Of a DNA stretch of 62,194 nucleotides, positions 7,677 through 62,194 are shown in pieces (the stretch's first letter is position 1; each line of letters opens with the position of its first letter). Origin of the DNA: a virus. Lineage: Duplodnaviria; Caudoviricetes. The notes below the pieces were generated by a model that made no database searches, was not told the DNA's origin, and saw only the letters and a program-made list of their open reading frames with translations. The translations under genes and the position numbers were made by a program. The stretch covers positions 1 to 62,194 of IMG/VR virus record IMGVR_UViG_3300032233_000294; one strand, 5' to 3'.

Positions 7677-7733
7677 GATGTTGTCCTCTAAAGTTGATGA
7701 AATATCGCCTAGTTGTTTTCTAAGCGATGATGT

Positions 7734-7763
7734 ATAGTGGCACAATCTAGGGGCTTAAGTAAA
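7734..7763 (-). promoter_or_regulatory. Probable sigma70 promoter abutting a palindrome
   Basis: TTTACT-18 bp-CACTAT; homologous to 8663-8692 and 9635-9664. Confidence 0.5.
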
Positions 7764-8592: not shown

Positions 8593-8662
8593 GTTCAAAT
8601 CTCCATAAAATGAACGGTTTGATAAAACACTGAATCAGCGGAACTGCTGAATCAGTGAGGTA

Positions 8663-43100: not shown

Positions 43101-46100
43101 AAACTACGAAGACAACCGTGCGCAGATGAGCAAGCTGCTCGGCGTTCAGTTCCCTGCATGGGAGAAGTTGTCGCCTGCCGCAAAGGCTGTGTATCTTAGA
43201 GAGATTGTTAACAACGCTGGGCAGCAGCAAGATGTGGCGTTTGCCAAACTTGGCGTTAAGCTGGTCCAAGACAACAAAGCGTTAAGCGAGCAAGAGAAAA
43301 AGCGCGATCAGAAAAACATCACTGACCGGCAAGAAGAAGTGCGCCGCAAGTCAGAAGAGCAAAACGAAAAAGACCGCAAGACCCGCGAAGCTTACGAGCG
43401 CAACAAACCGTCTGCTAGTTCCCTGCCTAACAGCGTAATTCAAATGATCATGAACAGCGACCTGCAAGGTGTGCTGGACTACATGAGCAACGCTAAGCTG
43501 GACTCTAAATCAGCGCCTACTAAGCGGATCATGAAAGCAGTGGCGCAGGCTCTTGCCGCTATGAAGCTCAACACCAAAATACAAATTGTTGAGGCCTCAA
43601 AGATTGAAGGTGACTTGGCGCAGTACGACCCAGTCAAAGACGTTATCTACATCACCAGAGAAGGCCTGAGTAGCAACACTATCCTGCACGAGATTATCCA
43701 CGCAGGTACGGTCAAGGTCATCAACGAGTACTTGTACGGTAACAAGGGCTCTCTGTCTCAGTTGCAGTTAGCTGGCGTCAGGCAGTTAGAGCGGATCATG
43801 GAAGAGACTCGTGGGTCACTTGCTGTAGATCATCCTGAGGCATACAGAAAAATTAAAGTAGACGGAAAAGAAAAACTTAACCTGTTTGAGTTTGTGTCTT
43901 ATGCTTTGACTAGCGCTCAACTGCAACAAGACTTGCATGATGAGTCTGTCGCGGGTGCTGGCGCAGAACGCTTGCTTAAAGGTGTTTACGGCAAAGAAAA
44001 CACTATCACAGAAACTATTGGCAAAATTCTGCCTACGGACAAGTCTCAGTGGTCTAAGTTCAAACTAGCTATTGCGCGTATTCTTAAAGTGCGTGATGAG
44101 TATTTGACTAAAGGCAAGTTGGACAGAACTGCTGACACCAACTACTTAATGGAGATTGCGGCGGCGTTTGAAGACATCCTTGTCAAACCAACTGAGCCAA
44201 TCTATCTTCCAGTGCTACCGGCTAAGAAAGCTGCCGCCCCTGCTAAAGCGCCTAAGCAAGCGCCTAAATTTCAAACGTCTGGGTTGTATGAAAAAGACAA
44301 GTCCTACAAATTAAGTAACAAAGAGAAGCATGGCCTAGACGTTGAAGGTGACCTATCAACAATAGGCCGCGTTAAACGCGCTTTTAGCCGTCATGGCTGG
44401 AGAGACTTTGTTACTAAAGTGCAGAGTCGGCGTCATCACATTCGCGCCTATGAAAATGAATTAGCTATGGCGGGGTTGCTTGTGCGCGATCCAACCTTGG
44501 CATTTAATAACGTCAGTGAAAAACAAGACTTAGCTATAAATCAAGGCGTCCGATACGCTATTGATTATTTGCAGCAGCCCCTGCAAAAACTGCATGAGAG
44601 TTTTAGCGACTGGTTAACATCAACTAATCAAAATACCGAAGCGGGTCTTGAGCAGTTTCATAAATTAGGGGAGATGTTTGGGGCAACTGAAAAGCGTTTT
44701 ACTAAGTGGTTAATGTTTGTGCCGTTAAGTAAAATACAAAATTTAATTCACAATGGTAAACCAATCAGCGCCGCTGAGCGCCGCATTGCTCTTGTGGGCG
44801 ACCCACGTACAGGAGTAGATGGATTAATTCATAGAGTTAAATTAAATGCTCAACAAATGGCAGCTATTAATAAAGAGCTAGAGTACCTCGCTACTAATCA
44901 TAATGATCCATTTGGTGATAGTCCTCGCATCAGCGAAAAAATGCGTATACGATTTGCTAAACCCGGCTCAAAACACAAGGGCTTAGATGTTGATATGGAC
45001 AAGCCAATCTTCAACGCTCTTGGTATTGAAAAAGTTACGGTAGATAAACGCATGGCTGAATTTCTAGCAAAAAGTCCAGAAGAACAAGCGTTAATTAAAG
45101 AAATATTTGCTCAAGTAAAAATTGTTACTGACGCCACCGCCAAGCTTAATGAAATTGGAAACTACTGGTCAATGCCTGTATCCAACATTGTAGGCATCTA
45201 CAACTACCAATACTACATGCCATTTAAAGGTCTGTCTAAGCATAGCAAAGCGGATGACATGATTGACCCCAACAGCAAAATGAATGGCGCTGAATTGCAG
45301 GATGAAATTCATTCAGCAGAAGGGCGTTTCTCTACGTCAGATAACCCGCTGTTACAGACTATCTACGACGGCTATAGAGCGGCTAGCCGTGCTGGGCGTA
45401 AAGACTTTACGCAGGCTGTTGAGAATGCTGTTGAGCCAACTACTAAAAAAGACGCATACAACCCAACAGGTACGGGCATTATTGTCGGTAGGGTTGTTAA
45501 AACAGTTCCATTTTGGGAACGCGATACTACGGACCTTTCTAAATACAAAGGGGCCAATAGCAAGTACATGTTTAACTACAAAGCCGATGGTTCTATGAAT
45601 ATCATCGCTATCGACAACCCTAAGTTGTTGCAAGCTATTCGTTACCCATTCCAAGAAAAAACTCCGCTGTGGGACGCCGCTAATCGGATAACAGGATTTT
45701 TTGGATCAATGCATACGCGATTTAACTACAACTTTGCGCCAAAAGACTTTGTAGTAAATACATTGACCAATGCTTGGGTTGGGGCTACAAATGAAATAGT
45801 TGGCCCATTAGGTTCTGTTGCGTATTTAAAAGATGTAGCTATGTCGGTTGCTAGAAACGGTCTTAGCAAAGCAATGAATATTGCTGTGTTGCATGAGATT
45901 GGAAACGCTGGCAGTAAAAAAATTATGAGTGATATGGCGGCAAAAGATTCGTTTGTCCGCGACATGCTTGAGATGATTAGGTACGGCGGCAAGAGTACTT
46001 ACATGGAAAGCTTCTCTTTAAAGTCAAATCTTGAGAACCTCAGTCAGAATTCTTTTGGTAAAAACAACATCATCACTGACCCTATTAGCGCAACTAAATT

Positions 46101-47562: not shown

Positions 47563-47765
47563 CGGACGCGCCAAGCGCGGACTCCAATGTGATTGTCTTT
47601 GTGCGTGACATAGCACTTGACTCTCACATCGGCGCGCTTGGCTCCGCTTTCTAAGACGTAGATCATCTCAGCAGGGCGCAAGGTGGGGATGAAAAAACTC
47701 TCCCCCACCTCCATTGCATCAAACGGGAATATCCACTCTGGTTCTTTGATGTCACTGGGATTCAT
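47559..47765 (-). CDS. Small probable DNA-binding protein
   Basis: FPFDAMEVGESFFIP...GVRAWR; start reassigned to ATG 47765. Confidence 0.6.
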   Translation of the reverse strand: MNPSDIKEPEWIFPFDAMEVGESFFIPTLRPAEMIYVLESGAKRADVRVKCYVTHKDNHIGVRAWRVR

Positions 47766-50607
47766 TAAACAAGTCGCTTGGAATCTCAGTTTTGAACCAA
47801 TAGAGATATGCAGGATCAACGCTGATCGCTGACTTCCAGCCAGTAGTGAGGCGTCCCTTCTTGTCGTCTACGAGAATCTTCTTCTCCCGCATGTCAAACT
47901 CAAACTCACGCAAACTCACTTGACGCTCCGCGAGGAACTTCTTGAACTCAGTCTTAGACACTTGCAAGAGACCTTCTTCACTGACGATGCGCCCTACGAG
48001 TTGGCCCCGGGGTTCCATAGTGACCTTGCCATCCTTGAGTACAAGTATGTTGCCCATGTTCTTGTTGATAAAGTCGCCAAGCAGAGACGGGTAGTCGGTG
48101 CGGTTAACCTTCACAACCTTGTCCCTGATCTCAATCATTGCCAGCACAGTCTGGTGGTAGATGCGTTCAAGGTCGTAGCCCGTGATGTTGTGTTCGTTAG
48201 CGATGGAGCCGCCGCCAAACGTTGAGCCGATCAAGTTCTGATAGAAGCGGTACTCAGCGTAGATGCCAAAGTCTTTCTCAAACCTCTCGTCCCATCTGGC
48301 GATGTGATCCAGCACATAGTTGTCGCCGCCTTTCAGAATCTCCTTGATGTACATCGGCCCTGCATGCCCGTAGTTGAAACGGAACGCATCAAAGATGTAC
48401 TTTCCCATCTTGCCGTCTTGATTGAGCAAGCTAGGTCTGTGGATTAAAAACTCAATCACACGAGCCGCCTCGCCATCGGGGCTAGCCTTCAGAGAGTCAA
48501 GCTTACCGTAGACAGAGTGATTGTTAGTTAGCATAGCAATCAGTGACGCGGACATCTCATACTCACGCTCAGCGTTGACCGAACCCTGCATACGAATCTT
48601 GGCCTTGCCATGAGACACGTTGTGAATCAAATTGCTCAAGTCCTCAGGCTTCTTGTCGCCCACCTCATCAAGCCCAAACATCAAGCTGTGCAGTCCAAGG
48701 TAGCGCCCAGTCAAGCCGTTGTCTGTGGCCTTCACCACGCTCAAATCCTTGGGATGCCCAAAGATACTTAGCCCACCGTACATTGCGCCGGTCTTGGCAT
48801 TGCCAGAGCGCCCAGTAAGGCTCACAGTCACTCCGGAAGTTGACGTATAAGGCATTAATGGGGAGCCAAACCCGCACATAGACGCAAAGGCATGCAGTTC
48901 AAACTCTGGCTTGTTTAGATAGTCCATCGACTCACGCCAACGCGCAAACGTGCCAGCTTGTGTCAGGTGTTTGGCTAAGCCACGAACAAAGGGCGACGAT
49001 GGCGCATCAAGAACTTCACCTGATAGCGTGTACTCCTTCTTGCCAATAACGAAGCTACGCTTGTCCCAGTTGGAGTTATCAGAGGTGCGCTCTTCTGTCC
49101 ACCCCATCTGCATGCGCATCTGCAACGCCTTGTCAGTTGTCTGGAGGTACTGCCCCCATTTGATGATGTAGTTCATAAGATGTTGGTCATTTACTGATGC
49201 AAACAATACGCCGTTGCTGGTCGTGATTGCTTTGAACGCTTCCTTGGCGTAGACGCTTTTCATAGGAAGCAAGAAGTCACGGAACCCGTCGTGCGGCAAC
49301 TCGTAGCGCATCTGCAAGCACTCGCCGTCATGTGGGCTGATCATGCGCGTTAGCGGGTACAGATCGCTAGAGAGAATCAGTACAGGGTCATCCTGATGCT
49401 TGACGCCCTTCTTGTCAACTTTGGCGGGGGGAACAAAGTAAATGCCTCCGTTCACTCCTCGGACGTAGGGGTAGAGGTACTCGGGGAAATCAGGAACCTT
49501 TTGGGTATGCGGGACTTCCCAAACTGCGTCCTCTTTATTTGTCGCGGGGGCTGGTTTGAATTGTTTACCCAAAACAATTGGGCTTGTGATCCTACCTCTG
49601 TGCTGACATCCATCGCATCGACTGGGGTAGTTGTCAATGAACCACTCACAGGTTCGTGGAGCAGGAATGGCATCTGCCTTTTCTTCTGTTTTTGCATGGT
49701 CGTATCTTGGGTCTGGGTTGGATAACTCATGGATAGCAGTCGCGCCATCATCACAAAACTTAGCGATGGATAGGCCTGCCCGCCACAACGGCTCTTCTAA
49801 AGAGGCGGCGTTCTCACAGATGTATTTAATCTGAGCGCAGCCACCTTCCTCGTCAACACTTTTTTGCGCCAACACCTCAAACGTTTTCGCAAAGTTGTCT
49901 AGCTTCAGAATTGCTTTGGTGTCCTCGTCAACGCCCTTGGGTATGCTTGCAAGGATGTCTTCCGCATTAAGCTCCTCTTGTGTCTGTGGGACTGCCGGTG
50001 CGGTTGGCGCTACACCAAAAAAGTCTTTAAACTCGTTCCAGTTGTAGACATGAATCTCGTCACTAACAACGGACGTTGGCTCTGGCGGGTCAAACTTGTA
50101 GTTGAGCGTCTCAGGTGCGCGCATGATACGGGCGGCATCTGCTGTAACCACTGGGTCAATAGATATATGCTGGAGACATAACGCTTTGAATTTCTCAGCG
50201 ACCGGCTTCCACTCATCTCGTGGGATGTCCTCATCCATGATCCAGTAGGCGTGTATGCCGCCACCTGAGTCAATCACCACTGGGTCAGGTAACCCAGTCT
50301 CCCCAACCAGTTTGTAAAGCGCTGTGTGTGCATCGCCCTTTGATTGGTAGTCTTTTCCCGCACCGACATCTAAGTCAATGAAGAACGATCGCACGAAGAG
50401 GCAGTCGTCTGCTTTCCTGCTGTAACCCTCAAACGTTCCAAGCGCAACGAAAGTGTTGGCTCCCTTTTTCTTGAACGTCTCTATCTGTGCAAATACGTCA
50501 TCAAGTGTCTCTGCGAATTTATTGGAAACCTTTTTGTCAGTCCCAATGCTTGTTATGCAATAGACACCCTGCGTAGGCAATGCTTTCTCGTAGAATTGTT
50601 TTAACAT
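47752..50607 (-). CDS. AEP-type primase fused to a DUF927 helicase
   Basis: FIDLD, SGGGIHAYW, ARIMRAP; Cys cluster TC...CDGC.H; Walker A-like GRSGNAKT; Walker B GLDE. Confidence 0.85.
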   Translation of the reverse strand: MLKQFYEKALPTQGVYCITSIGTDKKVSNKFAETLDDVFAQIETFKKKGANTFVALGTFEGYSRKADDCLFVRSFFIDLDVGAGKDYQSKGDAHTALYKLVGETGLPDPVVIDSGGGIHAYWIMDEDIPRDEWKPVAEKFKALCLQHISIDPVVTADAARIMRAPETLNYKFDPPEPTSVVSDEIHVYNWNEFKDFFGVAPTAPAVPQTQEELNAEDILASIPKGVDEDTKAILKLDNFAKTFEVLAQKSVDEEGGCAQIKYICENAASLEEPLWRAGLSIAKFCDDGATAIHELSNPDPRYDHAKTEEKADAIPAPRTCEWFIDNYPSRCDGCQHRGRITSPIVLGKQFKPAPATNKEDAVWEVPHTQKVPDFPEYLYPYVRGVNGGIYFVPPAKVDKKGVKHQDDPVLILSSDLYPLTRMISPHDGECLQMRYELPHDGFRDFLLPMKSVYAKEAFKAITTSNGVLFASVNDQHLMNYIIKWGQYLQTTDKALQMRMQMGWTEERTSDNSNWDKRSFVIGKKEYTLSGEVLDAPSSPFVRGLAKHLTQAGTFARWRESMDYLNKPEFELHAFASMCGFGSPLMPYTSTSGVTVSLTGRSGNAKTGAMYGGLSIFGHPKDLSVVKATDNGLTGRYLGLHSLMFGLDEVGDKKPEDLSNLIHNVSHGKAKIRMQGSVNAEREYEMSASLIAMLTNNHSVYGKLDSLKASPDGEAARVIEFLIHRPSLLNQDGKMGKYIFDAFRFNYGHAGPMYIKEILKGGDNYVLDHIARWDERFEKDFGIYAEYRFYQNLIGSTFGGGSIANEHNITGYDLERIYHQTVLAMIEIRDKVVKVNRTDYPSLLGDFINKNMGNILVLKDGKVTMEPRGQLVGRIVSEEGLLQVSKTEFKKFLAERQVSLREFEFDMREKKILVDDKKGRLTTGWKSAISVDPAYLYWFKTEIPSDLFNESQ

Positions 50608-51016: not shown

Positions 51017-51871
51017 TTATTTTTTAGACCACTTTTTCACCACGTCTGAGATGTCTTTCTCTTCGACTGCGGCGGCTTTTTTAGACTCAACCTTGACGGG
51101 AGGAGCTTCGTCTTCAACGATTTCGTTGCGGTGGCTAGGTACTTCAACTTCGCCTGTGCTGTCCGCTTGGAACACGTTCATCTTGATAGCGGCTTCAGCC
51201 ACTGGGCTCTTGGCTTGATTCGCAATGGTCTGCAAATCTTCGTCGGGAACCTTACCAGCTGGCGAGAACATAACCTTTGGCGTAGGAGATTTTGTATCGA
51301 AGGCCATCTTAGTGATTACGCGGCCGGCGCTTACATTGTGTGAGGCCAAGTGCTGGATGTACGGACGAAACGGGAATCGACCATTGTCTTCCTTGCCAAA
51401 CGCTGAAGTAGCTGGCAGCACCAACTGCATCACATCACCTGACGGATCGTTAGGCAAGACCACGGCTGTGCGCCATGACAAGCGGCAGGCTGTACCTGTG
51501 CCGCCCTGACCAGAACCTTTGACAGACTTGGTGCAGTCAAGGCAGGTAGAAGCGCAGGGAGTCTTGACATCTGCGTCAGGCTTCTCTGAGTCAGTAGACC
51601 AGCACACTGGGCTGACCTTCTGACCTTCTACATACGTGGCATCGTAGAACATGCGGGAGGCTTTGTGGGCCATCTTGACGAAGATCACGTTCATGTGACG
51701 GTCTTCAATAGCGCCAATTTCTTTGCCACCAGAGTACTTGCGGAACACGCCACCCTTGATAGAGATGCGTTTGTTTCCGCGAGCGCCACCTGCTACGGCA
51801 AGTGTGTCTTCATCCAAACCAGCGATAGGTGTTAATGCACCGCTGAACATTGCTGCGAGATCGTTACTCAT
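51017..51871 (-). CDS. Probable ssDNA-binding protein
   Basis: RISIKGGVFR, CWS..C..C...GS...ACR, LPATS; acidic tail; located in the replication module. Confidence 0.6.
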   Translation of the reverse strand: MSNDLAAMFSGALTPIAGLDEDTLAVAGGARGNKRISIKGGVFRKYSGGKEIGAIEDRHMNVIFVKMAHKASRMFYDATYVEGQKVSPVCWSTDSEKPDADVKTPCASTCLDCTKSVKGSGQGGTGTACRLSWRTAVVLPNDPSGDVMQLVLPATSAFGKEDNGRFPFRPYIQHLASHNVSAGRVITKMAFDTKSPTPKVMFSPAGKVPDEDLQTIANQAKSPVAEAAIKMNVFQADSTGEVEVPSHRNEIVEDEAPPVKVESKKAAAVEEKDISDVVKKWSKK

Positions 51872-51898
51872 GATAATTTTCCTGTTACTAGATTGAAC

Positions 51899-52309
51899 TT
51901 AATTGGAGGGTTTGCGCACGACAATCGTGAACTCCCTCATCACATTCACGCCGGGCGGGAGACCTTCTCCTTGATGCTCAGCCATGAACTCTTTGAAATT
52001 GCCCTGATGGATACGACGTTCCAGCAAGTCAATCGCCTCGTTGTCCAGAACGAACTTCTTGAAGTTGTCCCAGTCATTTGTAGTGAACCGCTCCTTGAGG
52101 GAACGAATCACTGTGCCGCTTTCGGTGCGGATACTGCTTGCGTTTGTATCGTTGCACACTGTCAGCATGGACTGCTCAAGCAGTTTCATCTCCTGCTCTA
52201 GCTCACCATCTTTTACTTCCCAACTCGATTTGAGTCTCTCACGCTCATTTCGTATTGTCAAGTAAATCTTGACTAATTCATCAAGATTTGTCTCAGTAGT
52301 TTCACTCAT
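51899..52309 (-). CDS. Conserved replication-module protein
   Basis: Coiled coil then SIRT..GT, DWD.F..F, LLERRI, PPG. Confidence 0.7.
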   Translation of the reverse strand: MSETTETNLDELVKIYLTIRNERERLKSSWEVKDGELEQEMKLLEQSMLTVCNDTNASSIRTESGTVIRSLKERFTTNDWDNFKKFVLDNEAIDLLERRIHQGNFKEFMAEHQGEGLPPGVNVMREFTIVVRKPSN

Positions 52310-53862
52310 ATCCCTAGCTCCTCTTTGTACAGATCGACCAGTCTTTCGTGCGTGTCAACCTTGCCTTGCAACATCTGATAGACCTTACGCTCAGCCTCTG
52401 AGCCTTGCAGATGGACAACTGTCATGCTGTTCTTCTGCCCGACTCGGTCGATACGCGCCACGCATTGCAGGTAAGTCTCTACGCTCATAACGGGAGACCA
52501 GAACACAACTGTGTCTGCGGCGGTCAGCGTAACGCCATGCGATGCTGCCTGTGGTTGAATCACTAGAACTCGTGGATCTGTTTGTGTTTGAAATCGATTG
52601 ATGATTTCGGACCGCTCTCTAGCGGGTACGTCTCCGTTAATTATTTCGTTGGCTACTCCTTGCGTGGTTAAATGACGTGCAACTAAAACGATGGTGTGCC
52701 GGAACGGGACAAACACAACGACCTTGTGCTGTGTCTCATCTAGCACCTCCATCAGTGCATTCAGGCGTGGTGACACGTCAAACTCCACCACCTCTTTGTT
52801 GTCGGTATAGATTGCTCCTCCCGACAACTGCAACAACTTACTCAGCTTCGCTGCCGCATTGACAGCGCTGATCTGTTCACCCGCTGCCTCTATCAGCAGC
52901 TGGTTCTTTAGCTCACGGTAGTACCTGTTAACTTGCGGCGTTAACGGCACTTCACGGGTCTGGTACACCAACTCAGGCAAGTCAAGACAATCAGCCTTCT
53001 CAAAGCGTATGGCAGGTTGCAGGGCGGTGAACACTTCTTGCTGTGCGATAGCTCGGGGAACCCACTTGAACTTGCTGATAGGTTGCATCACGCGATCACG
53101 CCAAGCTGTGAAGTACTTGGGTACGCCAGCAGGGTTGACCAGCTTTGCTAGCCCGAACGCATCCAGCGGGGACTGCGAGGCAGGTGTGCCTGTCATCATC
53201 CAGAGGCGGGTCGAAGGGGTGATCAATTTAGCCAAGGTCTTCCAACGTTTTGTCGATACTGTTTTATATGCGTTGGCCTCATCAATAACAATTAGGTCAA
53301 ACCCTACTTTACTAATATCTTCTTGAACAATGTTGACCCCATCGAAGTTGATGACAACAAATTCGTACTCTCCTTTAATAATCTTTTTGCGCTTGGATGC
53401 GTCTCCGTAAGCAACACCAACTGTTCTGTGCATGGCGGTCTTGAAGATATCTGCTTGCCACGCTGAGTACATGATGGACAAGGGGCAGACGATCAAGACT
53501 CGTCTGACTATCCCCAACTGCATGAGGTAGTCTGCCGCCCAAATGACTGAGGAGGTCTTGCCTGTGCCAGCTTCGTTGAAACAGAAGCAGCGGTCTCTCA
53601 AGGATAGGAACGATGAAGTAACTTTTTGGTGAGCGAACGGCTGGTACATGCCGGGCCAGTCGTACTCCTTGAGCATTGGGTTAGGAGCATCTCCATAGAT
53701 GCGTACAAGGCGTTGCATCTCGGGTACGCCCCAGTACACCGCTACCTCTGCGTTTGTGCCATCGTCTTTGAGCACCTCGCACCTGTCTATGTGTCCAACG
53801 AGAAATTGCAACTCGCCGGACGGAATTACCATGTGGACAACTGTGTCCTGCACTACATTCAT
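52306..53862 (-). CDS. SNF2-family helicase
   Basis: EAGTGKT, IDEAN, MTGTP, HGVTLTAA, Q..ARIDRVGQ. Confidence 0.9.
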   Translation of the reverse strand: MNVVQDTVVHMVIPSGELQFLVGHIDRCEVLKDDGTNAEVAVYWGVPEMQRLVRIYGDAPNPMLKEYDWPGMYQPFAHQKVTSSFLSLRDRCFCFNEAGTGKTSSVIWAADYLMQLGIVRRVLIVCPLSIMYSAWQADIFKTAMHRTVGVAYGDASKRKKIIKGEYEFVVINFDGVNIVQEDISKVGFDLIVIDEANAYKTVSTKRWKTLAKLITPSTRLWMMTGTPASQSPLDAFGLAKLVNPAGVPKYFTAWRDRVMQPISKFKWVPRAIAQQEVFTALQPAIRFEKADCLDLPELVYQTREVPLTPQVNRYYRELKNQLLIEAAGEQISAVNAAAKLSKLLQLSGGAIYTDNKEVVEFDVSPRLNALMEVLDETQHKVVVFVPFRHTIVLVARHLTTQGVANEIINGDVPARERSEIINRFQTQTDPRVLVIQPQAASHGVTLTAADTVVFWSPVMSVETYLQCVARIDRVGQKNSMTVVHLQGSEAERKVYQMLQGKVDTHERLVDLYKEELGI

Positions 53863-53886
53863 ACTGTTCCTTACTGTGTTAAAACG

Positions 53887-54016
53887 TGGCCCCTTACGGG
53901 GGCTAGTCGGTTAAGCCTGTCGTGCAGAAAGGAGATGGAGTACTCTGTCACCGCTTAACTGACATGGTTACAAAAGGGGTAGGCAACTGCAAGAATGTCA
54001 ACCCCCCAGCCTACTC
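53887..54016. ncRNA. Intergenic multi-hairpin element
   Basis: Stems at 53887-53905, 53906-16/53953-63 and 53977-84/54009-16. Confidence 0.4.
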
Positions 54017-54037
54017 ACTCATGCCTAACAGTAGAGA

Positions 54038-54349
54038 TTACTTCTTGCGCTCTTTCTTGCTTGTCTCTGACACCAAGTTTCCCTTAGTGTCTCGTTTGAA
54101 TGAACGGTTCTTTGCCGCGCTTTGAATGCGCAGCCCGTCCTTGTTAGAGCCGCCTTTGTCAAGGGCTTTAACGTGGGACACATCCTTGCCTTCACGCTTG
54201 TCAGCTTTGCCGTTGCCGTTGGCATCAGACCCTGTCTTGTCGATTGCTCGACGCCCCTTCTGACGCTCCATGCGGCGCTCATGCTCACCGCGAGTCTTTT
54301 GCTGTTGATACTCTTTGTCGTAGGGGCGAGGTTTGTTGACGTAGGCCAT
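54038..54349 (-). CDS. HNH-like basic protein
   Basis: KDVSHVKALDKGGSN...NRS; start reassigned to ATG 54349. Confidence 0.65.
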   Translation of the reverse strand: MAYVNKPRPYDKEYQQQKTRGEHERRMERQKGRRAIDKTGSDANGNGKADKREGKDVSHVKALDKGGSNKDGLRIQSAAKNRSFKRDTKGNLVSETSKKERKK

Positions 54350-55002
54350 TATCTTTCCTTGTGATGAGTGCAAGTGTTTACGGGACACCAGCCGCAGAGG
54401 GGTGTTGGATTGGGACTCCAGACATCCTTTATATACGATGTATCGAGACGATTCAAGTCGGGGTAAAAGGCGTCCCAAAGCTCTGAAATGTCTTCTCTAG
54501 AATATTCTTCAGTCATAAAACTGTTCTGCACTACGAAGAGTAAACCCGCTTTGATCCGGTTGATCTCAGGATAGTGGGCGAACGCCATGAGCGCCATCAG
54601 CTTTAACTGTTTTGGCTCAGGGTACTTGTTGCTTCCGGTCTTGTAGTCGATGATGAACGCTGTATCGCCGTCAATGATCATCAAGTCCACGATGCCCCGC
54701 ACCCAGTAGCCCTTGCCGTACTCACATGCCTTACCTTCGGCGTCAAGCGCCATCCTCTGCTCGGGGTGTCGAGTTCCCTCAATCTCCATGAGCGTATCAA
54801 GCACAGGTTTGAACTGTTGATAGTTCTTGGCAAGAGGCTTGCCTTCAGCGACGTAATCTTCACAGGCCTTGTGTACCTCATTGCCATACGTCATCTGCGC
54901 GGTCGGCTTGATGTAGAAGCGCTTAAGTACCTTGATTTCTTGGTACTGCTTGGGGCAGTTGACGTACTGCTTTAAGGACGAGAAAGACCATGTGAAATTC
55001 AT
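54349..55002 (-). CDS. PD-(D/E)XK Cas4-like exonuclease
   Basis: SFSSL....CP, GIVDL, IDYKTG, QL, C-terminal CGWC....C. Confidence 0.88.
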   Translation of the reverse strand: MNFTWSFSSLKQYVNCPKQYQEIKVLKRFYIKPTAQMTYGNEVHKACEDYVAEGKPLAKNYQQFKPVLDTLMEIEGTRHPEQRMALDAEGKACEYGKGYWVRGIVDLMIIDGDTAFIIDYKTGSNKYPEPKQLKLMALMAFAHYPEINRIKAGLLFVVQNSFMTEEYSREDISELWDAFYPDLNRLDTSYIKDVWSPNPTPLCGWCPVNTCTHHKER

Positions 55003-55229
55003 GTGTTCTCCTCCACGTTTAGCAAGCGCAGTTTCATGCGCTCAAGTAACCACAGAACATCCCCACCATCGGTGTAGGTCGAGGCAAAATACTCCTCACC
55101 TTCCTTGTCGTAACCGATCAGGATTACATCCTCCAGTTTTCCCTTAGTATTCTCAAGCACCATGTCAGGGTCAAGGTCAAGTTTGGTAATGCCGTTAAAT
55201 AGAATGACGTTGCTCATTTTTTCAGTCAT
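54999..55229 (-). CDS. Acidic hypothetical protein
   Basis: ATGA-coupled on both sides. Confidence 0.7.
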   Translation of the reverse strand: MTEKMSNVILFNGITKLDLDPDMVLENTKGKLEDVILIGYDKEGEEYFASTYTDGGDVLWLLERMKLRLLNVEENT

Positions 55230-55423
55230 GCGTTTTTCTCCTTGAGTCTGTCTTCCGTCATTTGCAAAGCCTGATACCGAGTGTTTGCTTTATCCAAGAT
55301 TTCAAAAAGCTCCTTATTCGTCAGCCCTACCCACTCTCGCTTGTAGATTTCAGCCTCGGGTCTGCCAGCATTGATTTCTTTAAGTTGCGCTTTGGCTTGC
55401 TCAAACTGTTCTTGTAGTGTCAT
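55226..55423 (-). CDS. WVGLT-motif mini-protein C (65 aa)
   Basis: YKREWVGLT...LKEKNA; AAGGAG RBS. Confidence 0.7.
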   Translation of the reverse strand: MTLQEQFEQAKAQLKEINAGRPEAEIYKREWVGLTNKELFEILDKANTRYQALQMTEDRLKEKNA

Positions 55424-55599
55424 GCGTTCAACTCCTTCAACATGGCTTGCACCGCTTTTGCAAACACTACTTGTCCCCAAGGCATAGGCGCACCTCGGTG
55501 TTCCGCTACCACCTCGTAGTAGATGGCTTCTATCTGTGAATCACTCAGGTCTACCCACGGCTTCTTGTAGACCTGTGTATCATCGTCTTCGTCAGTCAT
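55420..55599 (-). CDS. WVGLT-motif mini-protein B (59 aa, not in ORF track)
   Basis: MTDEDDDTQVYKKPWVDLS...LKELNA. Confidence 0.75.
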   Translation of the reverse strand: MTDEDDDTQVYKKPWVDLSDSQIEAIYYEVVAEHRGAPMPWGQVVFAKAVQAMLKELNA

Positions 55600-55757
55600 G
55601 TGTTCTTCTCCCTAAGGCGTTGTTCAATGTATTCAATGACTGCCTCCATGTAAGTAGTCTTCCAATCACTCAGATAAAGCGCATGCTGCTTCTCTTCAAA
55701 AGTCAGCCCTACCCACGGCTTTTTGTAGACCTGTGTGTCATCGTCTTCTTCGGTCAT
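55596..55757 (-). CDS. WVGLT-motif mini-protein A (53 aa, not in ORF track)
   Basis: MTEEDDDTQVYKKPWVGLT...LREKNT; first 49 bp are 45/49 identical to B. Confidence 0.75.
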   Translation of the reverse strand: MTEEDDDTQVYKKPWVGLTFEEKQHALYLSDWKTTYMEAVIEYIEQRLREKNT

Positions 55758-56188
55758 TTCTTCTCCTTTACTTTAGCCGTACCAAGCGCGAGGAACCAAT
55801 CTTTAAACACATCAGCAGGGCGGCATGCTAGGTATATCCCCCTGCCATCACGCACCTTGGATATTGCGGCAACTACGTCCTTCCAATCGTCTTGGTTCAT
55901 GCCATAAAGTGCTTCCTGTGGCGATGTGCATGTGTGAATCGTGGTCAGGTCAGCAGTGCGCTTGCCGCAGCGTTCGCAGAAGTTGCGCTCCTCTGGCTGT
56001 GCTGCGGGTGGGTAGTTGTTGCTGCTACAAGCCACACACTCGTAAAGTACCTTTGCCTTGCACTCGGGACAGGTTGGCTCCTGCACTTGCTGTGCTTCGT
56101 CTTCTTCTAACATCTTTGCTAATACTTTTCTTGCTGTTGGCGTGTCCGGCATCTTTGCTTCGTCCAACATTTCTTTTGTGATTTTCAT
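55754..56188 (-). CDS. Protein with two zinc-ribbon modules
   Basis: CPEC...CVAC and CERC...HTC; start reassigned to ATG 56188. Confidence 0.65.
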   Translation of the reverse strand: MKITKEMLDEAKMPDTPTARKVLAKMLEEDEAQQVQEPTCPECKAKVLYECVACSSNNYPPAAQPEERNFCERCGKRTADLTTIHTCTSPQEALYGMNQDDWKDVVAAISKVRDGRGIYLACRPADVFKDWFLALGTAKVKEKK

Positions 56189-56364
56189 ATTAGTAGACTC
56201 CAGATGTAAAGCCCCGTAAAGAAAAACAAAGCGGCTATCACTACCAGCGCCACCAAAACAAACCCAACTAAAACGCTGCCGACTATCTGCCACGATTGCG
56301 GCACTGGCTCAATGTCTTCGGGAACAATTGGGTACGGCTTGACCTTGCGGACTTCTTCGTTCAT
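56185..56364 (-). CDS. 59-aa membrane protein (not in ORF track)
   Basis: AAGGAG RBS; IVGSVLVGFVLVALVVIAALFFFTGLYIWSLLI. Confidence 0.7.
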   Translation of the reverse strand: MNEEVRKVKPYPIVPEDIEPVPQSWQIVGSVLVGFVLVALVVIAALFFFTGLYIWSLLI

Positions 56365-56399
56365 GTTGTCTCCTTAAGTATCGTTGTATTTGACATATA

Positions 56400-58268
56400 T
56401 TAACACTCTCCATAGGTCTGTGCGTACTTCGCTTCGCAAGTCACGGGTAAACCCCTAGCCCACTCGGGTGGCGTAGACATGCACTCGACGATATATGCAA
56501 GAGCCTCATCTTTCTCCGCCTCGGGAACCACGATCACCGCCGCATCATGGACAGTCAGGGCAACGCGATAACGCTCGTTGATCTTGATCATCTGCTCCCC
56601 CACGATGATTCGCGCCAAAGCTTGAACTACGTTTTCAACTAGCGACCCGCCCCACAGAGACACGGGGCCCTTGCGCGACTTGTAGACATACTGACTCTTA
56701 GACTCCGACGTATCCAGCTTCAGTTCAGGGTATCGGATAGAAAGCCCATTAGGGAGACCAACCCCGTCTTTAGTGATTTTCAAGCACTTGTGTTTGCCGT
56801 AGTAGTACGGCTTGCCTTCCCAGTTGGCAAGATCTTTGATCACCTTGTCGCCGTCTTTCCAAAGCTTGATCACCTTGTCGTTGGCTTCGCGGTATGTATC
56901 AACATAGTTCTTAGCCTCGGTTTCGGTAACGATTGCTCCCGGTGGCTGAGTCTTCAGCGTGTGCTGAAGCTTTAACGCGCCAGTCCCGTAGCCTAAACCC
57001 AAGATGCAGGTCTTGCCCACGAAACGCTCCACAGGGTTGGCCTTGGTTATGGGGCGCTCATATATCTTGGACGCAAAGACCGAGTAGACATCCTCCCCGT
57101 TGCTGAACTGCTTGACCACATCCTCTTGCCCCGCCAGCCAGACAAGAACACGCGCCTCAATCTGAGAAGAGTCACAGTTGATGACGATGTGATCGTCGGG
57201 CGCTACGACTGCGTTCTTCAGAGCTTTCTTTTTCTTATCTCTACTTGGTAGATTTTGGAAGTTAACCTTATCACTGCCAGCCCAGCGTCCAGTATGCGCA
57301 CCGTAGTATTTGAGTGGGATGGGCAGGCGGCCCCTGTTGCGCTTGCCAACGTCAATGAATCTCTCAATCCTTGATTCTTCGATGGTGGATTTTGTGCCGA
57401 GTCGCACAGCGCATAGCTGTTGGATAAATGGGTCATCATGTTCAGTGAGTTTAAGGAAAGCTTCGTCGTTCTTCGCCAACGCATAGGTCATCTTGCCTGT
57501 TGTCTTGCTCTCCTTCATCGGAGCCTCAACCCCGCGCTCGACTAACAATTCAGCAAACTGTTTATTACTGGCGAGTCGTTTGCGCACCGCCTCTGCGGTC
57601 TCACATTTTAACTTCTCCATCAAGCCCTCAAGCAACAACTGCTTCTCTTCTTTGAGTTCCTCGTAGCGCTCTTGTAGTAGCGCATCATCAACAAAGAACA
57701 CAGGATGCGTGAACATGCGCAGGGTCATGTCAATCAACGCCAACTCGTTCTCGGGGAAGTCGCTCAACAATATTCTAAACAACTCATGCGTGAGGTCTAC
57801 GTCGTTCTTACAGTACTCGCCGTATCGCGCAAGCTCTTCTTTGTTGAAGTCGAGTCGAGCCTTGCCTTCAGCGGCGATCACTTCATCGCCTTTGACGCCG
57901 ATCTTGTAGCGTTCAGCCAATGCCTTGAGTGAGCCACCTGCCTCAACGCCATGAATCGCTCTCGCCATACACAAAGTGTCAAGCATGAACGCGGGCGTGA
58001 TGCCATAGTGCCAGCTAAGAATAGCGCCATCGAAGAGCGTGTTGTGGCACAGAAGCGGACTGCTGCCCCAGTCTAGCGATGTTAGATATTCTTTTATCTT
58101 ATCCCTACCGCCTGATACCCAGACAGTCGGCTGCTCATCCACCTTCACGCCCACGCCGATAACTTCAAAGCGTTTATCGCGTATGTATTCCTCAGTGGTC
58201 TGATGCTTGAAGCCCAGCTTGATCTTGCTATCGTAGTAAGTCTCAAAGTCAATCGTTATTAGTCGCAT
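56400..58268 (-). CDS. polA: Family A DNA polymerase with 3'-5' exonuclease
   Basis: ExoI DFET, ExoII HN..FD, ExoIII YCKND; HTGRW, NFQNLP; motif A DSSQIEAR, B R...K...LG..YG, C VHD. Confidence 0.93.
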   Translation of the reverse strand: MRLITIDFETYYDSKIKLGFKHQTTEEYIRDKRFEVIGVGVKVDEQPTVWVSGGRDKIKEYLTSLDWGSSPLLCHNTLFDGAILSWHYGITPAFMLDTLCMARAIHGVEAGGSLKALAERYKIGVKGDEVIAAEGKARLDFNKEELARYGEYCKNDVDLTHELFRILLSDFPENELALIDMTLRMFTHPVFFVDDALLQERYEELKEEKQLLLEGLMEKLKCETAEAVRKRLASNKQFAELLVERGVEAPMKESKTTGKMTYALAKNDEAFLKLTEHDDPFIQQLCAVRLGTKSTIEESRIERFIDVGKRNRGRLPIPLKYYGAHTGRWAGSDKVNFQNLPSRDKKKKALKNAVVAPDDHIVINCDSSQIEARVLVWLAGQEDVVKQFSNGEDVYSVFASKIYERPITKANPVERFVGKTCILGLGYGTGALKLQHTLKTQPPGAIVTETEAKNYVDTYREANDKVIKLWKDGDKVIKDLANWEGKPYYYGKHKCLKITKDGVGLPNGLSIRYPELKLDTSESKSQYVYKSRKGPVSLWGGSLVENVVQALARIIVGEQMIKINERYRVALTVHDAAVIVVPEAEKDEALAYIVECMSTPPEWARGLPVTCEAKYAQTYGEC

Positions 58269-58437
58269 CTGTTTTTCCAAAGATTTTCTCGTAGTACTGT
58301 GCGGGGAACGGCGCTTTCTTCTCTAAGAGTGTTCGCAACCATTCCGCACCGCCAAGCTGACCAAGTATCAAGAACTGCTTGTCGGTCAGTCGGATTTGTC
58401 TTCCTATGAGGGGCGAGGGGGGTTTGGGTCTAGGCAT
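58249..58437 (-). CDS. Ribbon-helix-helix-like small protein
   Basis: MPRPKP...RQIRLTDKQ...LGGAEWLR. Confidence 0.6.
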   Translation of the reverse strand: MPRPKPPSPLIGRQIRLTDKQFLILGQLGGAEWLRTLLEKKAPFPAQYYEKIFGKTDATNND

Positions 58438-58942
58438 TTCCTCTCCCGATACCGAGTTTTCTCCAAAAGCCAGCACTCCCTGCCCCCGCTTCCTTAGCAG
58501 CGTACCGCGCATGCATCTCCGCTGTCGCTTGTGAGTCGGCGTACTGCTTCTGCATCATCTCTTGCTGGGCCTGCATCATCTCTTGCTGGCCTCTTGGGTC
58601 TGTCCAACCTTGACCGTACTGTTGAGAACTACTGGTTACGCCGCCAGTGAACGGGGTGCGTATGGCGTTCGTAAGGTACGCCCGTTTTAACGGGTCAAGC
58701 TCTGTGTCTGTGTTCTCGCCAGCCAATGTCTTGAGAACTTGCTCGTTAAACCTATCAAGCATATGTTGCCTTCTAGATTCCTCCATCGCCTTATTGATTG
58801 CGTCAGCCTCTTCTCTCGGTAAGCATTCTCTGGCGGCATTGAGGACTCTAGACCACCTGCCTATGCCGTGTATGTCATGATCTGCGAACTCTTCGGGGCA
58901 ATCTTTTATCCGCTTCAGCAAAATCTCTGTTCCGATTTCCAT
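58430..58942 (-). CDS. Hypothetical protein
   Basis: AGGAG RBS; duplicated QQEMMQ. Confidence 0.7.
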   Translation of the reverse strand: MEIGTEILLKRIKDCPEEFADHDIHGIGRWSRVLNAARECLPREEADAINKAMEESRRQHMLDRFNEQVLKTLAGENTDTELDPLKRAYLTNAIRTPFTGGVTSSSQQYGQGWTDPRGQQEMMQAQQEMMQKQYADSQATAEMHARYAAKEAGAGSAGFWRKLGIGRGNA

Positions 58943-58978
58943 GTCTAATCTCCTAAATTAAAACAACTGGTATCAAAA

Positions 58979-59006
58979 TAGCGTCCCACTGAGGCATGGG
59001 AGGCTA
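58979..59006. promoter_or_regulatory. Near-complete copy of the 28-bp palindrome TAGCGTCCCAC-N6-GTGGGACGCTA
   Basis: TAGCGTCCCAC TGAGGC ATGGGAGGCTA; another near-complete copy at 449-476. Confidence 0.7.
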
Positions 59007-59027
59007 TCTAAGAAAAAGTATGGCTAC

Positions 59028-59053
59028 AAAAAAAGGCATGGCGAACCATGCCC
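59028..59053 (-). terminator. Intrinsic terminator
   Basis: GGGCATGG-TTCG-CCATGCCT plus T tract. Confidence 0.85.
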
Positions 59054-59060
59054 TAAGGGT

Positions 59061-59582
59061 TTAAACTTTGGCGCGCTCGATAGCTCGGGTCAGATACCAC
59101 TGAGCCTTGCGCAAGTCTTCTAGTTTGCTACCCTTGTGGTCTGCCCTAGTGACATACTTGACAACATTGCCCAAGTGAAAGCCTAGACTTTTTGCCTCAA
59201 TAAAGTCAATGGTCTCAATCCCGCCTATTTTGTAGTGGGGCGGATGGTTCACGCTGTCGGCGTTTAGTTCCTCTTCTGTTGGGCCTCCTGCTAGGATTGA
59301 CTGCCCACTACTAGTCACGGCTATGGTCTGCCAATTCTCGGGGCGGCTACCCTGCATGCGAATCTTGGCTTTGCCCTGCGACACCTCGTGAATAAGTTTT
59401 GCGTACCTCTGCTTAACCTCACTCTTCTGCGCATGGTCATCAGCTAGAGCTTTCCTAGCTTTTGACATCAAGACATAGGCGTATGACTTAGCTACGCCAA
59501 GCTTCGCCATCACTTGCTCTGTTTTGATATTCGGGTTAGCTTCCAAAAGCTTACGCACTTTCTCTGTTTTACTGCGGGTCAT
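59061..59582 (-). CDS. N-terminal HTH-like plus C-terminal DUF3310 (T7 gp1.7-like nucleotide kinase family) protein
   Basis: VNHPPHY...IETIDFI...GNVVKYVTRA..KG...EDL.KA.WYL. Confidence 0.8.
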   Translation of the reverse strand: MTRSKTEKVRKLLEANPNIKTEQVMAKLGVAKSYAYVLMSKARKALADDHAQKSEVKQRYAKLIHEVSQGKAKIRMQGSRPENWQTIAVTSSGQSILAGGPTEEELNADSVNHPPHYKIGGIETIDFIEAKSLGFHLGNVVKYVTRADHKGSKLEDLRKAQWYLTRAIERAKV

Positions 59583-59778
59583 TTGCCTTCTCCTTTTTGG
59601 TTTGGCGTTTAATTGATACGATACCGGCACTGTGCCGATCTCGTGCCTTCTGCATAGAATCTGCTATCTCATACGCTATGTCGGCTAGTTCATCTGTAAC
59701 CCCCTTTCTCATAATTAAACCAACTAGTGCAAGACCAGCGTGTAGGTCACGCAGATTGCTACGATCTTCATCATTCAT
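59569..59778 (-). CDS. Hypothetical protein
   Basis: LRDL.AG.A..G...AY..AD.M..AR pattern. Confidence 0.7.
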   Translation of the reverse strand: MNDEDRSNLRDLHAGLALVGLIMRKGVTDELADIAYEIADSMQKARDRHSAGIVSIKRQTKKEKANDPQ

Positions 59779-60059
59779 AATTTCTCCAATAGCTGTGTCA
59801 GGTCATTGATGTTTGTTTCATCAATGACAAGGGTGAGCCCACCCACCCCACGGATGGCTGACATGTGTTTATCTTGTAAGGCAGTCGGCTTGTTGCCGTT
59901 AGCCTTGGCTTCAACGCCTATGAATCTTCCCTTGTAACAAATCACAAAGTCAGGGACGCCCGATGCACCATACCCAGTGCCAATAGGCATGGTGTAGTAA
60001 GCCCCCCTTGTTTGAAGAATGTCCTTGATCTTCTTCTTAACTGCTCCCTCAGGCGTCAT
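59775..60059 (-). CDS. VRR-NUC domain nuclease
   Basis: E..V, GVPD, GVEAK, PTALQ. Confidence 0.85.
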   Translation of the reverse strand: MTPEGAVKKKIKDILQTRGAYYTMPIGTGYGASGVPDFVICYKGRFIGVEAKANGNKPTALQDKHMSAIRGVGGLTLVIDETNINDLTQLLEKL

Positions 60060-60420
60060 TTAGCGTCCCACCCTTCAGTGACTCTAGAGTTGGTCGGTCT
60101 ACAACTAAACAAAAGTAGGTGTCAGATGACCTCCACCCAACCTCATCAAGTTCGGGCGCGTATGTGTTTGTGTAGAGTGACAATCTAAGTACTTTTGAAT
60201 CAGACAAGTACGAACCTCCGTTAGCTAGAATCATTGCAAATTTAGACTTCAATACATCAGGCAGGGTATCGTCCGTATAAATGCGGTGATACCCATCTGC
60301 TACATATACGATGTAGTTATCGTTCACCTTGCGAACAGGGACACGAACCAACTCCCAATTCTTAGGGTGAACCACAGGACTCATTTCCCCAATTAAGTGG
60401 GGCATGGGGTTGCCATCCAT
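60049..60420 (-). CDS. Hypothetical protein
   Basis: ORF in a coupled operon; start uncertain. Confidence 0.65.
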   Translation of the reverse strand: MDGNPMPHLIGEMSPVVHPKNWELVRVPVRKVNDNYIVYVADGYHRIYTDDTLPDVLKSKFAMILANGGSYLSDSKVLRLSLYTNTYAPELDEVGWRSSDTYFCLVVDRPTLESLKGGTLNDA

Positions 60421-61367
60421 GCTTGTTCGTAATTGTTAGGGCTACTGTTATAGAAAAATACTGCATCAAGACCTTCATCGTACTTGTCTTGTAGCGGGAA
60501 GTTCAACACGCCAAGCCGCTTCATTTCCTTAGCTTCGTAAGAGACTTTCATCATCGTCATCAAGGGCAACAACTCGGGGTACTCCTCGATTGTTCTGACC
60601 CGCTTGAAGTCTTCAAGGGCTTCGTACTCAAATTTATTTGTGTCGCTGTGTATCACGGTTATCTTGAACTTTCCTATGAGCAGATGCTTGTACTCGTCTA
60701 TGCCAATGAGATAGAAAGGATTCTTGAAGAACCGCTTGGATTCTTCTTTCTTTATGTCTCTTATCCTATCAGCTTCTTTGTAAATGTCAAGTGTATTTTT
60801 ACATTTATTTAGGTCTAATGGGGCAATAATTCCATCGGTACTTTCCCCTAGTACGGTCAATAACATTGCGTGAATTTCATCAGGGGTGAACTCATTTCTT
60901 TTATCGCTTGTGCCCATCGAATTGCGTAAGACAGTTACGGCATGCTTGACTGTCTTCACCTTGGTATCCCTAAGGTGTTTCATAGGCTTCACAACCTCTT
61001 GGCGTTTGAGCACTGCCATGAGTGAAGAAAGTTTTGTACTGCGAATAGTCTCTCGATCATTGCTATCTTGCCCACGAGACTTTTGGTAGAAAGGTGTGCG
61101 GAAACAGAACTCTAACTGATCGTTGTTAGTCCCGCCCTTATTTGTTGTCCACACCTTACCAACAGCTATCCCATTGGGGTAGCACATCATGTAAGCGTGT
61201 TTATCTATTTCGGGGTAGTTGACATTCACTACTTTGTCCATAACTTTCAAGCCGTACTTGAATTGCATCTCACGCACCAGTGGGAGAACATCTGAGTGAA
61301 GCAACTCGTCCAGTTGTTCCTCTGTGCCGAACCCCTCAAGAAAATATCTGCTGAATGTGTATGTCAT
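60393..61367 (-). CDS. Hypothetical protein (324 aa)
   Basis: Long ORF; AAGGAG RBS; ATGA-coupled. Confidence 0.75.
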   Translation of the reverse strand: MTYTFSRYFLEGFGTEEQLDELLHSDVLPLVREMQFKYGLKVMDKVVNVNYPEIDKHAYMMCYPNGIAVGKVWTTNKGGTNNDQLEFCFRTPFYQKSRGQDSNDRETIRSTKLSSLMAVLKRQEVVKPMKHLRDTKVKTVKHAVTVLRNSMGTSDKRNEFTPDEIHAMLLTVLGESTDGIIAPLDLNKCKNTLDIYKEADRIRDIKKEESKRFFKNPFYLIGIDEYKHLLIGKFKITVIHSDTNKFEYEALEDFKRVRTIEEYPELLPLMTMMKVSYEAKEMKRLGVLNFPLQDKYDEGLDAVFFYNSSPNNYEQAWMATPCPT

Positions 61368-61558
61368 ACGAACTCTCCTTCAATGATTTGTTGTTTCAGC
61401 TTGATCGTCACGCCTAGACTTCTGATCTTCTCCAACGCTTGCGGGGTAAGCGTGACTGTCCCTGCTATCCCTGCAAACAACTTGGCTCTCTCGCACATGG
61501 GGTAATACTTCACCGCCCCATATACATTCCTTACTTCGATCTTAATTTCGTTAGTCAT
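61364..61558 (-). CDS. Small hypothetical protein
   Basis: VYG...YP....AK.FA.IAGT.TLT motif. Confidence 0.7.
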   Translation of the reverse strand: MTNEIKIEVRNVYGAVKYYPMCERAKLFAGIAGTVTLTPQALEKIRSLGVTIKLKQQIIEGEFV

Positions 61559-62071
61559 ACTGTTTCACCTCCACTCCATCGACCATGACTGTGTAACCCC
61601 ACTCACTCGGCGGGTACATCTCGCCGTTGGTGTACTCAACCTTCTTGAACACCTCATCGTTCTGTTTGTATATCTCCTTGTTCAGTCTGCGTTTGAGATT
61701 CAAGAACATCGTGTGTGGCATTTCCTCGTGTGAGCTATACCTACCACTACTTGAATCAATGAACTTGCGTAGGTTCCAACGCATGTTGCCAATGTCCCAC
61801 CCCACCATGTAAAGCATCGCCGCATCAAGCGGTGCGGTGTGAAGCAGTGTCTCGGCCTTCGCTGAATAGTCTGTATGTGATTCAACAATGCCTAGCCCAC
61901 CCATGTGTTCATTGACCACATCATTCATGGTCTTGACGAACGCCTCGTAGTCCATCGCCTTTGTCATCACTTCAGTCGTCAGGTAGAAGTCTTGGTATCG
62001 AGCGAGTAACTCTTTGCCCACCTTGCGATTGACTTTCCTGCCAATGACCGTGATTGGTTTGGTTGGGCGCA
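61551..62071 (-). CDS. 3' half of the junction-spanning hypothetical protein
   Basis: In frame with 517-1 across the overlap. Confidence 0.85.
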
Positions 62072-62194
62072 TAGTTTCACAGTCAACCCGCAAGCCTTGG
62101 TAGATTGGTATCGCGCCTCGTGTTCTGTCGTTTCTGAATTTGCCTCCCTGCGCCCCCATCCATATCGTCCCACCCCTGCGTGAGTCAGTAGATA
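62072..62194. repeat. Terminal overlap, identical to 1-123
   Basis: Exact identity. Confidence 0.95.

Follow-up and report, generated by a model that had tools for sequence, protein, structure and literature searches.

A helicase-matching peptide with a conserved core in the linker of a phage DUF3310 protein

Genomic setting and organization of the DUF3310 protein

The genome analysed here is the whole virus record IMGVR_UViG_3300032233_000294, and the window is this entire stretch of 62194 bases. Among cultured phages, no close DNA relative of the genome was found, and the best match to its primase-helicase, from Pseudomonas phage Rollin, is 25% identical. The replication module runs on the minus strand from 51017 to 62159 and carries, on that strand, genes for an SNF2-type helicase (52306-53862), a PD-(D/E)XK nuclease (54349-55002), a family-A DNA polymerase with a 3'-5' exonuclease (56400-58280), and a small endonuclease-like protein belonging to phrog_93 (59775-60059).

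The DUF3310 gene (59061..59582, minus strand) encodes a gp1.7/SaV-like protein of 173 residues, in which a winged helix-turn-helix (wHTH)-like N-terminal part, a linker, and a C-terminal DUF3310 domain follow one another. Its ATG lies at 59580-59582 and is preceded by the Shine-Dalgarno-like run AAGGAGAAGG, and the database gene call yields the same 173 residues (homologue P0001); an alternative GTG start at 59630 probably makes the gene too long. In the AlphaFold2 model, which was built with 120 homologues, the N-terminal helix-turn-helix-like domain (aa 1-52; 59427..59582, minus strand) is formed by helices at residues 5-15, 21-28, and 32-52 with a pLDDT of 76-90, and its resemblance to the winged helix of SSV1 F-112 is weak (Pfam, E=0.0035; PDB 2vqc, E=0.011). 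A further helix spans residues 55-68, pLDDT falls below 50 over residues 74-126, and the helices of the DUF3310 domain follow; this domain (aa 111-164; 59091..59252, minus strand) matches PF11753 with 75.2 bits against a cut-off of 24. The N-terminal module was found without DUF3310 in none of the shorter proteins matched, and all 35 matches of near-equal length carry PF11753.

The protein has 6283 database matches, 437 cultured-phage records were matched, and the PHROG families that match it carry the label nucleotide kinase. Judged by similarity, it is a gp1.7-like protein and a putative nucleotide kinase. To our knowledge, no catalytic motif has been defined for the DUF3310 family.

The primase-helicase and its predicted hairpin

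The primase-helicase gene (47752..50607, minus strand) encodes 951 residues and is assigned to DUF927 and to the Cch/MCM-like ATPases from Pfam, the Cch structure 5dgk, and Foldseek. The DUF927 match scores 57.9 bits against a cut-off of 22.6, and the C-terminal half of the protein aligns with Cch (5dgk) with E=2.5e-5 in an alignment that runs across the 17-residue segment considered below. An AlphaFold2 model covering aa 450-951 (pLDDT 81) retrieves 5dgk (E=2e-16) and SaPIbov1 Rep (8tch, E=1e-11) in Foldseek, followed by MCMs and SV40 LTag. The model passes from a Walker B strand through a helix and a β-hairpin to a strand with LTNN, the hairpin strands lying at model residues 219-226 and 230-237 and the LTNN strand at 241-246. 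Residues K156, T157, D198, E199, N247, and R267 are invariant in an alignment of 42 helicase sequences; by our reading of this alignment, K156/T157 would belong to Walker A, D198/E199 to Walker B, N247 to sensor-1, and R267 would be the post-sensor-1 arginine.

The hairpin predicted between Walker B and the sensor-1 strand (48550..48606, minus strand) comprises aa 668-675 and 679-686, with a low-confidence tip. The segment that recurs in the DUF3310 protein, LIHNVSHGKAKIRMQGS (aa 660-676; 48580..48630, minus strand), covers in the predicted structure the C-terminal part of the post-Walker B helix and the first, ascending strand of this hairpin, and is not a loop. The sequence-only reading had placed it just after Walker B; it is indeed downstream of Walker B, but it begins 12 residues after FGLDE (aa 644-648). 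According to the available part of PMC9371898, the equivalent hairpin of SaPI Rep helicases binds ssDNA and its mutation abolishes helicase activity; such hairpins are described there as essential elements that line the channel and grip ssDNA as a staircase, with contacts made through Arg, Lys, and Tyr. On the model, the helicase 17-mer appears to occupy the same element as the pore hairpin of Cch (5dgk), SaPIbov1 Rep (8tch), MCM, and SF3 enzymes, and because this position in the fold matches the ssDNA-gripping hairpin of related helicases, the helicase copy is taken to be a native functional element.

Two other features of the gene and its surroundings may be recorded here. On the opposite strand, a 2478-aa ORF (40126-47562, plus strand) adjoins the helicase gene end to end; it has N-terminal repeats of the form (D)IxKARAAGY and probably encodes a giant protein of the virion or of ejection. 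Within the helicase, a second invariant R-M-Q stretch, ALQMRMQMGWTEER, is located at about aa 494-507, upstream of the ATPase core; its residues M48-W54 are invariant in the 42-sequence alignment, it is modelled with low confidence, and nothing in it aligns with the DUF3310 peptide beyond R-M-Q.

The 17-residue match

The DUF3310 protein carries the 17-mer LIHEVSQGKAKIRMQGS at aa 63-79 (59346..59396, minus strand), where it takes in the end of helix 55-68, a Gly, and a low-confidence extended stretch, and thus lies in the variable linker, for which the AlphaFold2 pLDDT is below 50 from residue 74. The 15/17 identity with the helicase segment that had been reported from the sequence is confirmed. 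BLASTP of the DUF3310 protein against the primase-helicase gives 15/19 identities with a pairwise E=2e-6, and no alignment was obtained between the two proteins outside the peptide region. At the DNA level, 40/51 bases of the two copies are equal (78%), compared with 88% identity of the peptides, and the likeness breaks off sharply at both edges. The earlier codon count was reproduced as well: seven codons differ, five of them synonymously, including AGC against TCG for the last Ser.

The chance level was gauged by shuffling the residues of 74 crude ORF proteins from the whole genome (n=40) and scoring the best 17-mer shared between proteins. The maxima were 9/17 in 13 shuffles, 10/17 in 24, and 11/17 in 3, against 15/17 for the real match, which is far beyond chance. 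Among the 74 ORF proteins, the only other pairs with a 17-mer of at least 12 identities are two pairs of paralogues, which match over many windows. The adjacent paralogues at 7080-7745 and 7903-8598 (both minus strand) share 49 windows with at least 11/17 identities, the best of them 15/17, and those at 24541-24958 and 25172-25657 (both plus strand) have 7 windows in common.

Conservation of the core among DUF3310 linkers

The conserved part of the peptide is its core, K73-I-R75-M-Q-G-S79 (59346..59366, minus strand), which follows the family pattern K-x-R-M-Q-[SAG]-[SA]. Among the best 120 of the 6283 homologues, R75 is at least 90% conserved and [KR]xR[ML]Q is present in 69/120 linkers, which show graded forms: LIHEVSQG[KR]xKIRMQ in the closest relatives, and IRQNVAQGNAKIRMQ, INELLQGRKKHRMQ, LVYNMSRPRIRMQ, DGTWKFKIRMQGS, and EALAKPKARMQSS elsewhere. 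In the other 51/120 linkers this position is taken by a basic helix rich in Arg and Lys, as in MIRLRDMAKRRAIA or KRLHKRLELSR. The extended form is confined, within these 120 homologues, to the closest relatives (P0001-P0010, P0012, and P0020); it does not occur in 80 IMG/VR and 80 metagenome loci, among the matches listed, where the best match to the protein is 53% identical. As a conserved island amid variable flanks, located in a segment of low pLDDT, the core has the features of a short linear motif, as far as the model goes.

Across all related loci that were fetched, the strict motif is found in 37/168 unique DUF3310 genes and is missing from the other 131/168, though the phages share the helicase family. 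In the 37 motif genes, Met is kept in 31/37 and Gln in 33/37; Arg is encoded by CGT (12), CGC (6), AGG (6), AGA (5), CGG (3), and CGA (2), and Gln by CAA (17) and CAG (16). The occurrence of every possible Arg and Gln codon indicates that selection acts at the amino-acid level. The earlier claim that selection keeps the peptide therefore holds for K-x-R-M-Q followed by two small residues, but not for LIHxVSQG, which is seen only in the closest relatives. That the segment might be unique to this genome, or be decaying without constraint, is contradicted for the core by its presence in 69/120 homologues and by its varied Arg codons.

These data also bear on the idea that the resemblance is fortuitous, or reflects a nucleotide-level signal common to both genes, such as a site, an RNA structure, or an internal start. 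The peptide is short, and translation might in principle begin internally at its conserved Met; T7 gp1.7 reportedly occurs in two forms. Shuffled proteins, on the other hand, reach at most 11/17, the whole genome is without any Rfam family match, and the residues are kept while synonymous codons vary, the DNA being less alike than the peptides. As for the start, Met is replaced by Leu in 6/37 genes, in one of them as TTA, so that internal initiation at Met76 is unlikely from the codon and residue patterns. Shuffles and codon usage thus largely refute chance or a nucleotide-level signal, and we regard this explanation as extremely improbable.

The specificity of the strict motif was assessed with the pattern K.RMQ[SAG][SA] in six-frame ORFs of the fetched loci (2.35 million residues), which gave 100 occurrences, of which 68 lay in helicase hairpins, 31 in DUF3310 linkers, and a single one in another protein. 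Neither T7 gp1.7 nor the DUF3310 protein of Staphylococcus phage PH15 contains K-x-R-M-Q; the replicative helicase annotated in PH15 is of the DnaB-like type.

Beyond the motif, at aa 80-108, the linker takes one of two forms that are each conserved and can replace one another, NWETxxVTTSGQSILAGGPTEAELNA or NNLPEGMTxxEAEEIVADVNQAIAQH. As these combine freely with different motif types, they indicate shuffling of modules within the gene.

The segment in related helicases and its relation to the linker

The segment is near-invariant, down to about 41% identity, in the 77 IMG/VR loci that a search with the helicase retrieved, and over 126 loci it is kept and falls into two clades. Clade A helicases, which include that of this phage, read LIHxVS[HQ]GK[AS]KIRMQ[GSA]S, and clade B helicases, only about 30% identical, read DLAYSISQGRGK[DN][KR]M. 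The core of clade B helicases is K-[DN]-[KR]-M-[KRN], while the DUF3310 linkers found with them keep K-x-R-M-Q. Since clade B helicases bind DNA without M-Q, these residues appear dispensable for the generic function of the hairpin. A scan of viral contigs with the degenerate pattern QG..KIRMQ returned 119 stretches, comprising 114 flagged helicase hairpins, 2 helicase pieces at locus ends, and 3 unrelated ones; 0/119 were in DUF3310 proteins.

When each linker was compared with the segment of its own helicase (2000 shuffles each), P was below 0.01 in 8/51 unique pairs, 4 of them in clade B, and the clade B linker types reached z of 3.4-7.4. In the clade B locus L368, the linker DLAYKAGLGRPKLRMQS and the helicase DLAYSISQGRGKDKMKS have clade-B-specific flank residues in common (DLAY..GR), and in another locus, L372, K-M is present in the linker and the helicase alike. 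In a permutation restricted to the flanks, with the core excluded, the scores of own pairs were barely above those of permuted ones (P=0.045, for 16 linkers without control for relatedness). Over the whole segment, 3/4 clade B linkers score higher against clade A hairpins, the type of this phage, than against their own, because they keep R-M-Q. Within the clade of this phage the helicase hairpin is almost invariant, and many clade A phages with a near-identical hairpin have motif-less linkers (for example, L003, L006, L009, and L014). The co-variation that the sequence-only reading had proposed to look for across relatives is consequently weak and mostly negative: the flanks lean no more than marginally towards the resident helicase, and 3/4 clade B linkers do not follow theirs. 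A complex prediction for the helicase C-terminal domain with aa 1-110 of the DUF3310 protein gave a score of 0.00 and a mark of 0.32, and counts neither way.

Evidence for copying at the DNA level

In this phage, 9/14 identical non-Met residues share their codon between the two copies, against 4.76 expected from the codon usage of the genome (P=0.016), in a test that is weak at 17 codons. In the other helicase/linker pairs, pooled, 26/69 codons are equal against 25.7 expected (P=0.52), with no trace of copying at the DNA level. The excess, which is confined to this phage, makes a fairly recent DNA-level copy likely, and the helicase is the likely source because the segment there belongs to the conserved ATPase fold; the earlier claim that a helicase segment had been copied into the DUF3310 protein is to that extent upheld. 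Taken together, the sequences fit an old capture under protein-level selection and a younger DNA-level re-copy in this lineage, in which gene conversion seeded by the shared core would have lengthened the match to 17 residues.

The same observations can be read without any helicase-related function. A prior, unrelated K-x-R-M-Q in the linker may have shared about 20 bases with the helicase gene, and short-patch recombination may have stretched the identity to 51, leaving the extension as a tolerated by-product, that is, a relic of gene conversion. The excess of identical codons confined to this phage, the sharp edges of the DNA likeness, the limitation of the extended form to the closest relatives, and the independence of the core from the clade of the resident helicase all agree with this account, which accounts well for the extended part, though not for where the core came from or what it does. 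It is also at odds with the graded helicase-like forms that go beyond the core in other linkers (IRQNVAQGNAKIRMQ, INELLQGRKKHRMQ, and the clade B types with their raised z), and with the confinement of the strict motif to helicase and DUF3310 proteins, one neighbouring gene excepted. We consider it unlikely.

Possible roles of the linker peptide

The descriptive part of our preferred explanation, namely, that the linker carries a helicase-matching peptide whose core is under protein-level selection and which was likely copied again in this lineage, is in our judgement very probable. Joined to a docking or mimic mechanism at the helicase or the replication fork, the explanation as a whole is put forward tentatively and falls short of being probable. 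As a short linear motif for docking or mimicry, the peptide would recruit the nucleotide-kinase-like protein, with its DNA-binding type of N-terminal domain, to the ring of the helicase or to wherever the hairpin engages, and recruitment of this kind would place the DUF3310 protein at the fork. Docking or mimicry is favoured because M-Q and the two small residues are kept though clade B helicases do without them, because the motif is almost exclusive to the helicase and DUF3310 families, and because it occurs once in the tail of a neighbouring protein (L132), as a portable motif would. It is further favoured by a pull-down with the helicase GP46 of Lactococcus phage F13, which recovered the DUF3310 protein of the same phage, GP32, according to the available part of PMC8965321.

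Several findings stand against docking. The motif is optional, its strict form being lacking in most related DUF3310 genes, and the core is independent of the clade of the resident helicase; the helicase element lies inside the ring and is partly buried, so that it offers no obvious surface to imitate; and the F13 helicase is from another family. Moreover, the basic helix of the motif-less linkers fits a simple nucleic-acid-binding role. In a second explanation, the peptide is a DNA- or RNA-binding arm beside the wHTH, captured from the hairpin or convergent with it because both contact the nucleic-acid backbone, and makes no contact with the helicase. The peptide is directly C-terminal to the confidently modelled HTH-like domain, it is basic (K71, K73, and R75), and Arg, Lys, and Tyr mediate ssDNA binding by the corresponding hairpin in related helicases (PMC9371898, in its available part); homologues lacking the motif have the Arg/Lys-rich helix instead (MIRLRDMAKRRAIA, KRLHKRLELSR), and the core fails to follow the helicase of its own phage. 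Charge alone, however, does not account for the strict succession of M-Q and two small residues, which divergent-clade helicases do not need to bind DNA; the identities in the helix part, LIHxVS.G in this phage and DLAY in L368, are left unexplained, and the DUF3310 copy has no partner strand with which to form a hairpin. A role as such an arm is only a little less likely than docking, and like docking it falls short of being probable.

A bolder version of the docking reading would make K-x-R-M-Q a portable hairpin-mimic, captured repeatedly from the pore hairpin of the replicative helicase, with which accessory replication proteins, namely, the wHTH-DUF3310 protein of this phage and the small neighbouring protein of L132, would plug into the staircase of the helicase or cap it. 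We hold this to be doubtful; if true, the mimic would load, brake, or feed the helicase, and the source of a replisome docking motif would be an internal catalytic element, not a terminal tail.

The peptide could also imitate or mask a helicase epitope sensed by host defence, as an immune decoy or trigger. T7 gp1.7 activates EfAvs5 (PMC11897194), and SaV sets the sensitivity to AbiV (as summarised in PMC8306868), as far as the available parts of these sources report. This support is circumstantial. In the predicted fold, by contrast, the helicase element points into the channel and away from the outside, and no defence system that recognises a DUF927 hairpin is known to us. We regard this role as very improbable.

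Few early proteins of phages are as widespread as the DUF3310 proteins, which trigger at least two defence systems (Avs5 and AbiV), and beyond the kinase activity of T7 gp1.7 little is clear about what they do or with what they interact. A helicase-derived peptide gives a concrete handle on where such a protein acts, at the helicase or at the fork, and it would be an unusual instance of a phage putting a functional part from inside one replication protein to use as a linear motif in another. Should it bind the ring, it could reveal how the self-loading MCM-like helicases of phages and satellites are regulated.

Comparison with known systems

T7 gp1.7 likewise has a C-terminal DUF3310 domain after a variable N-terminal part (PF11753, 81.5 bits, aa 122-184) and is 37% identical to the present protein over the BLASTP match (28/76, E=7e-7), but its N-terminal part is rich in Cys and contains neither an HTH nor K-x-R-M-Q. 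The helicase of T7 is a member of a different superfamily. In T7, the helicase gp4 and the SSB gp2.5 have similar acidic C-terminal tails, which let both dock at one shared site. In either T7 protein the peptide is an exposed terminus, whereas in the present pair one copy forms part of the internal structure of the ATPase. With respect to the pore hairpins, the DUF3310 copy differs in comprising a helix end and the ascending strand with neither the descending strand nor an ATPase core, and in lying in a segment modelled as disordered.

SaV of lactococcal phages and GP32 of F13 are, like the present protein, early phage DUF3310 proteins (PMC8306868, available part). They are small and without the wHTH-linker architecture, the available text reports no shared peptide for them, and the F13 helicase is described as a RecA-like 5'-3' enzyme, whereas that of this phage is of the DUF927 type. 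A full-text search for the core peptide returned no paper, and the DUF3310 literature, in its available parts, describes no such shared peptide. Short linear motifs and mimicry within the replisome are already known; a helicase-derived or helicase-like peptide in a DUF3310 linker appears to be new.

The motif in a neighbouring protein family

The single strict motif outside helicases and DUF3310 linkers lies in the C-terminal tail of a 99-aa protein of locus L132, beside a DUF3310 gene that is itself motif-less. The 99-aa gene (L132:10996-11295, plus strand) has the tail ...LRKIRMQGSNFAKTLGFK and adjoins L132:10556-10999; the two are tandem paralogues of the protein encoded at 58430-58942 in the present genome, and are located between the DUF3310 and DNA polymerase genes. 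Within this family, the motif is present in 1/69 unique members, namely, the 99-aa copy. The tails of the family (58430-58942, minus strand, in this genome) are rich in Q, M, N, and G and contain R-A-M-Q-like strings, such as QQRAMQGMSG and NRAMQNAAQGSG, the corresponding tail of this genome being QEMMQAQQEMMQ; these strings may have arisen by chance in low-complexity sequence, or may be a degenerate version related to the motif.
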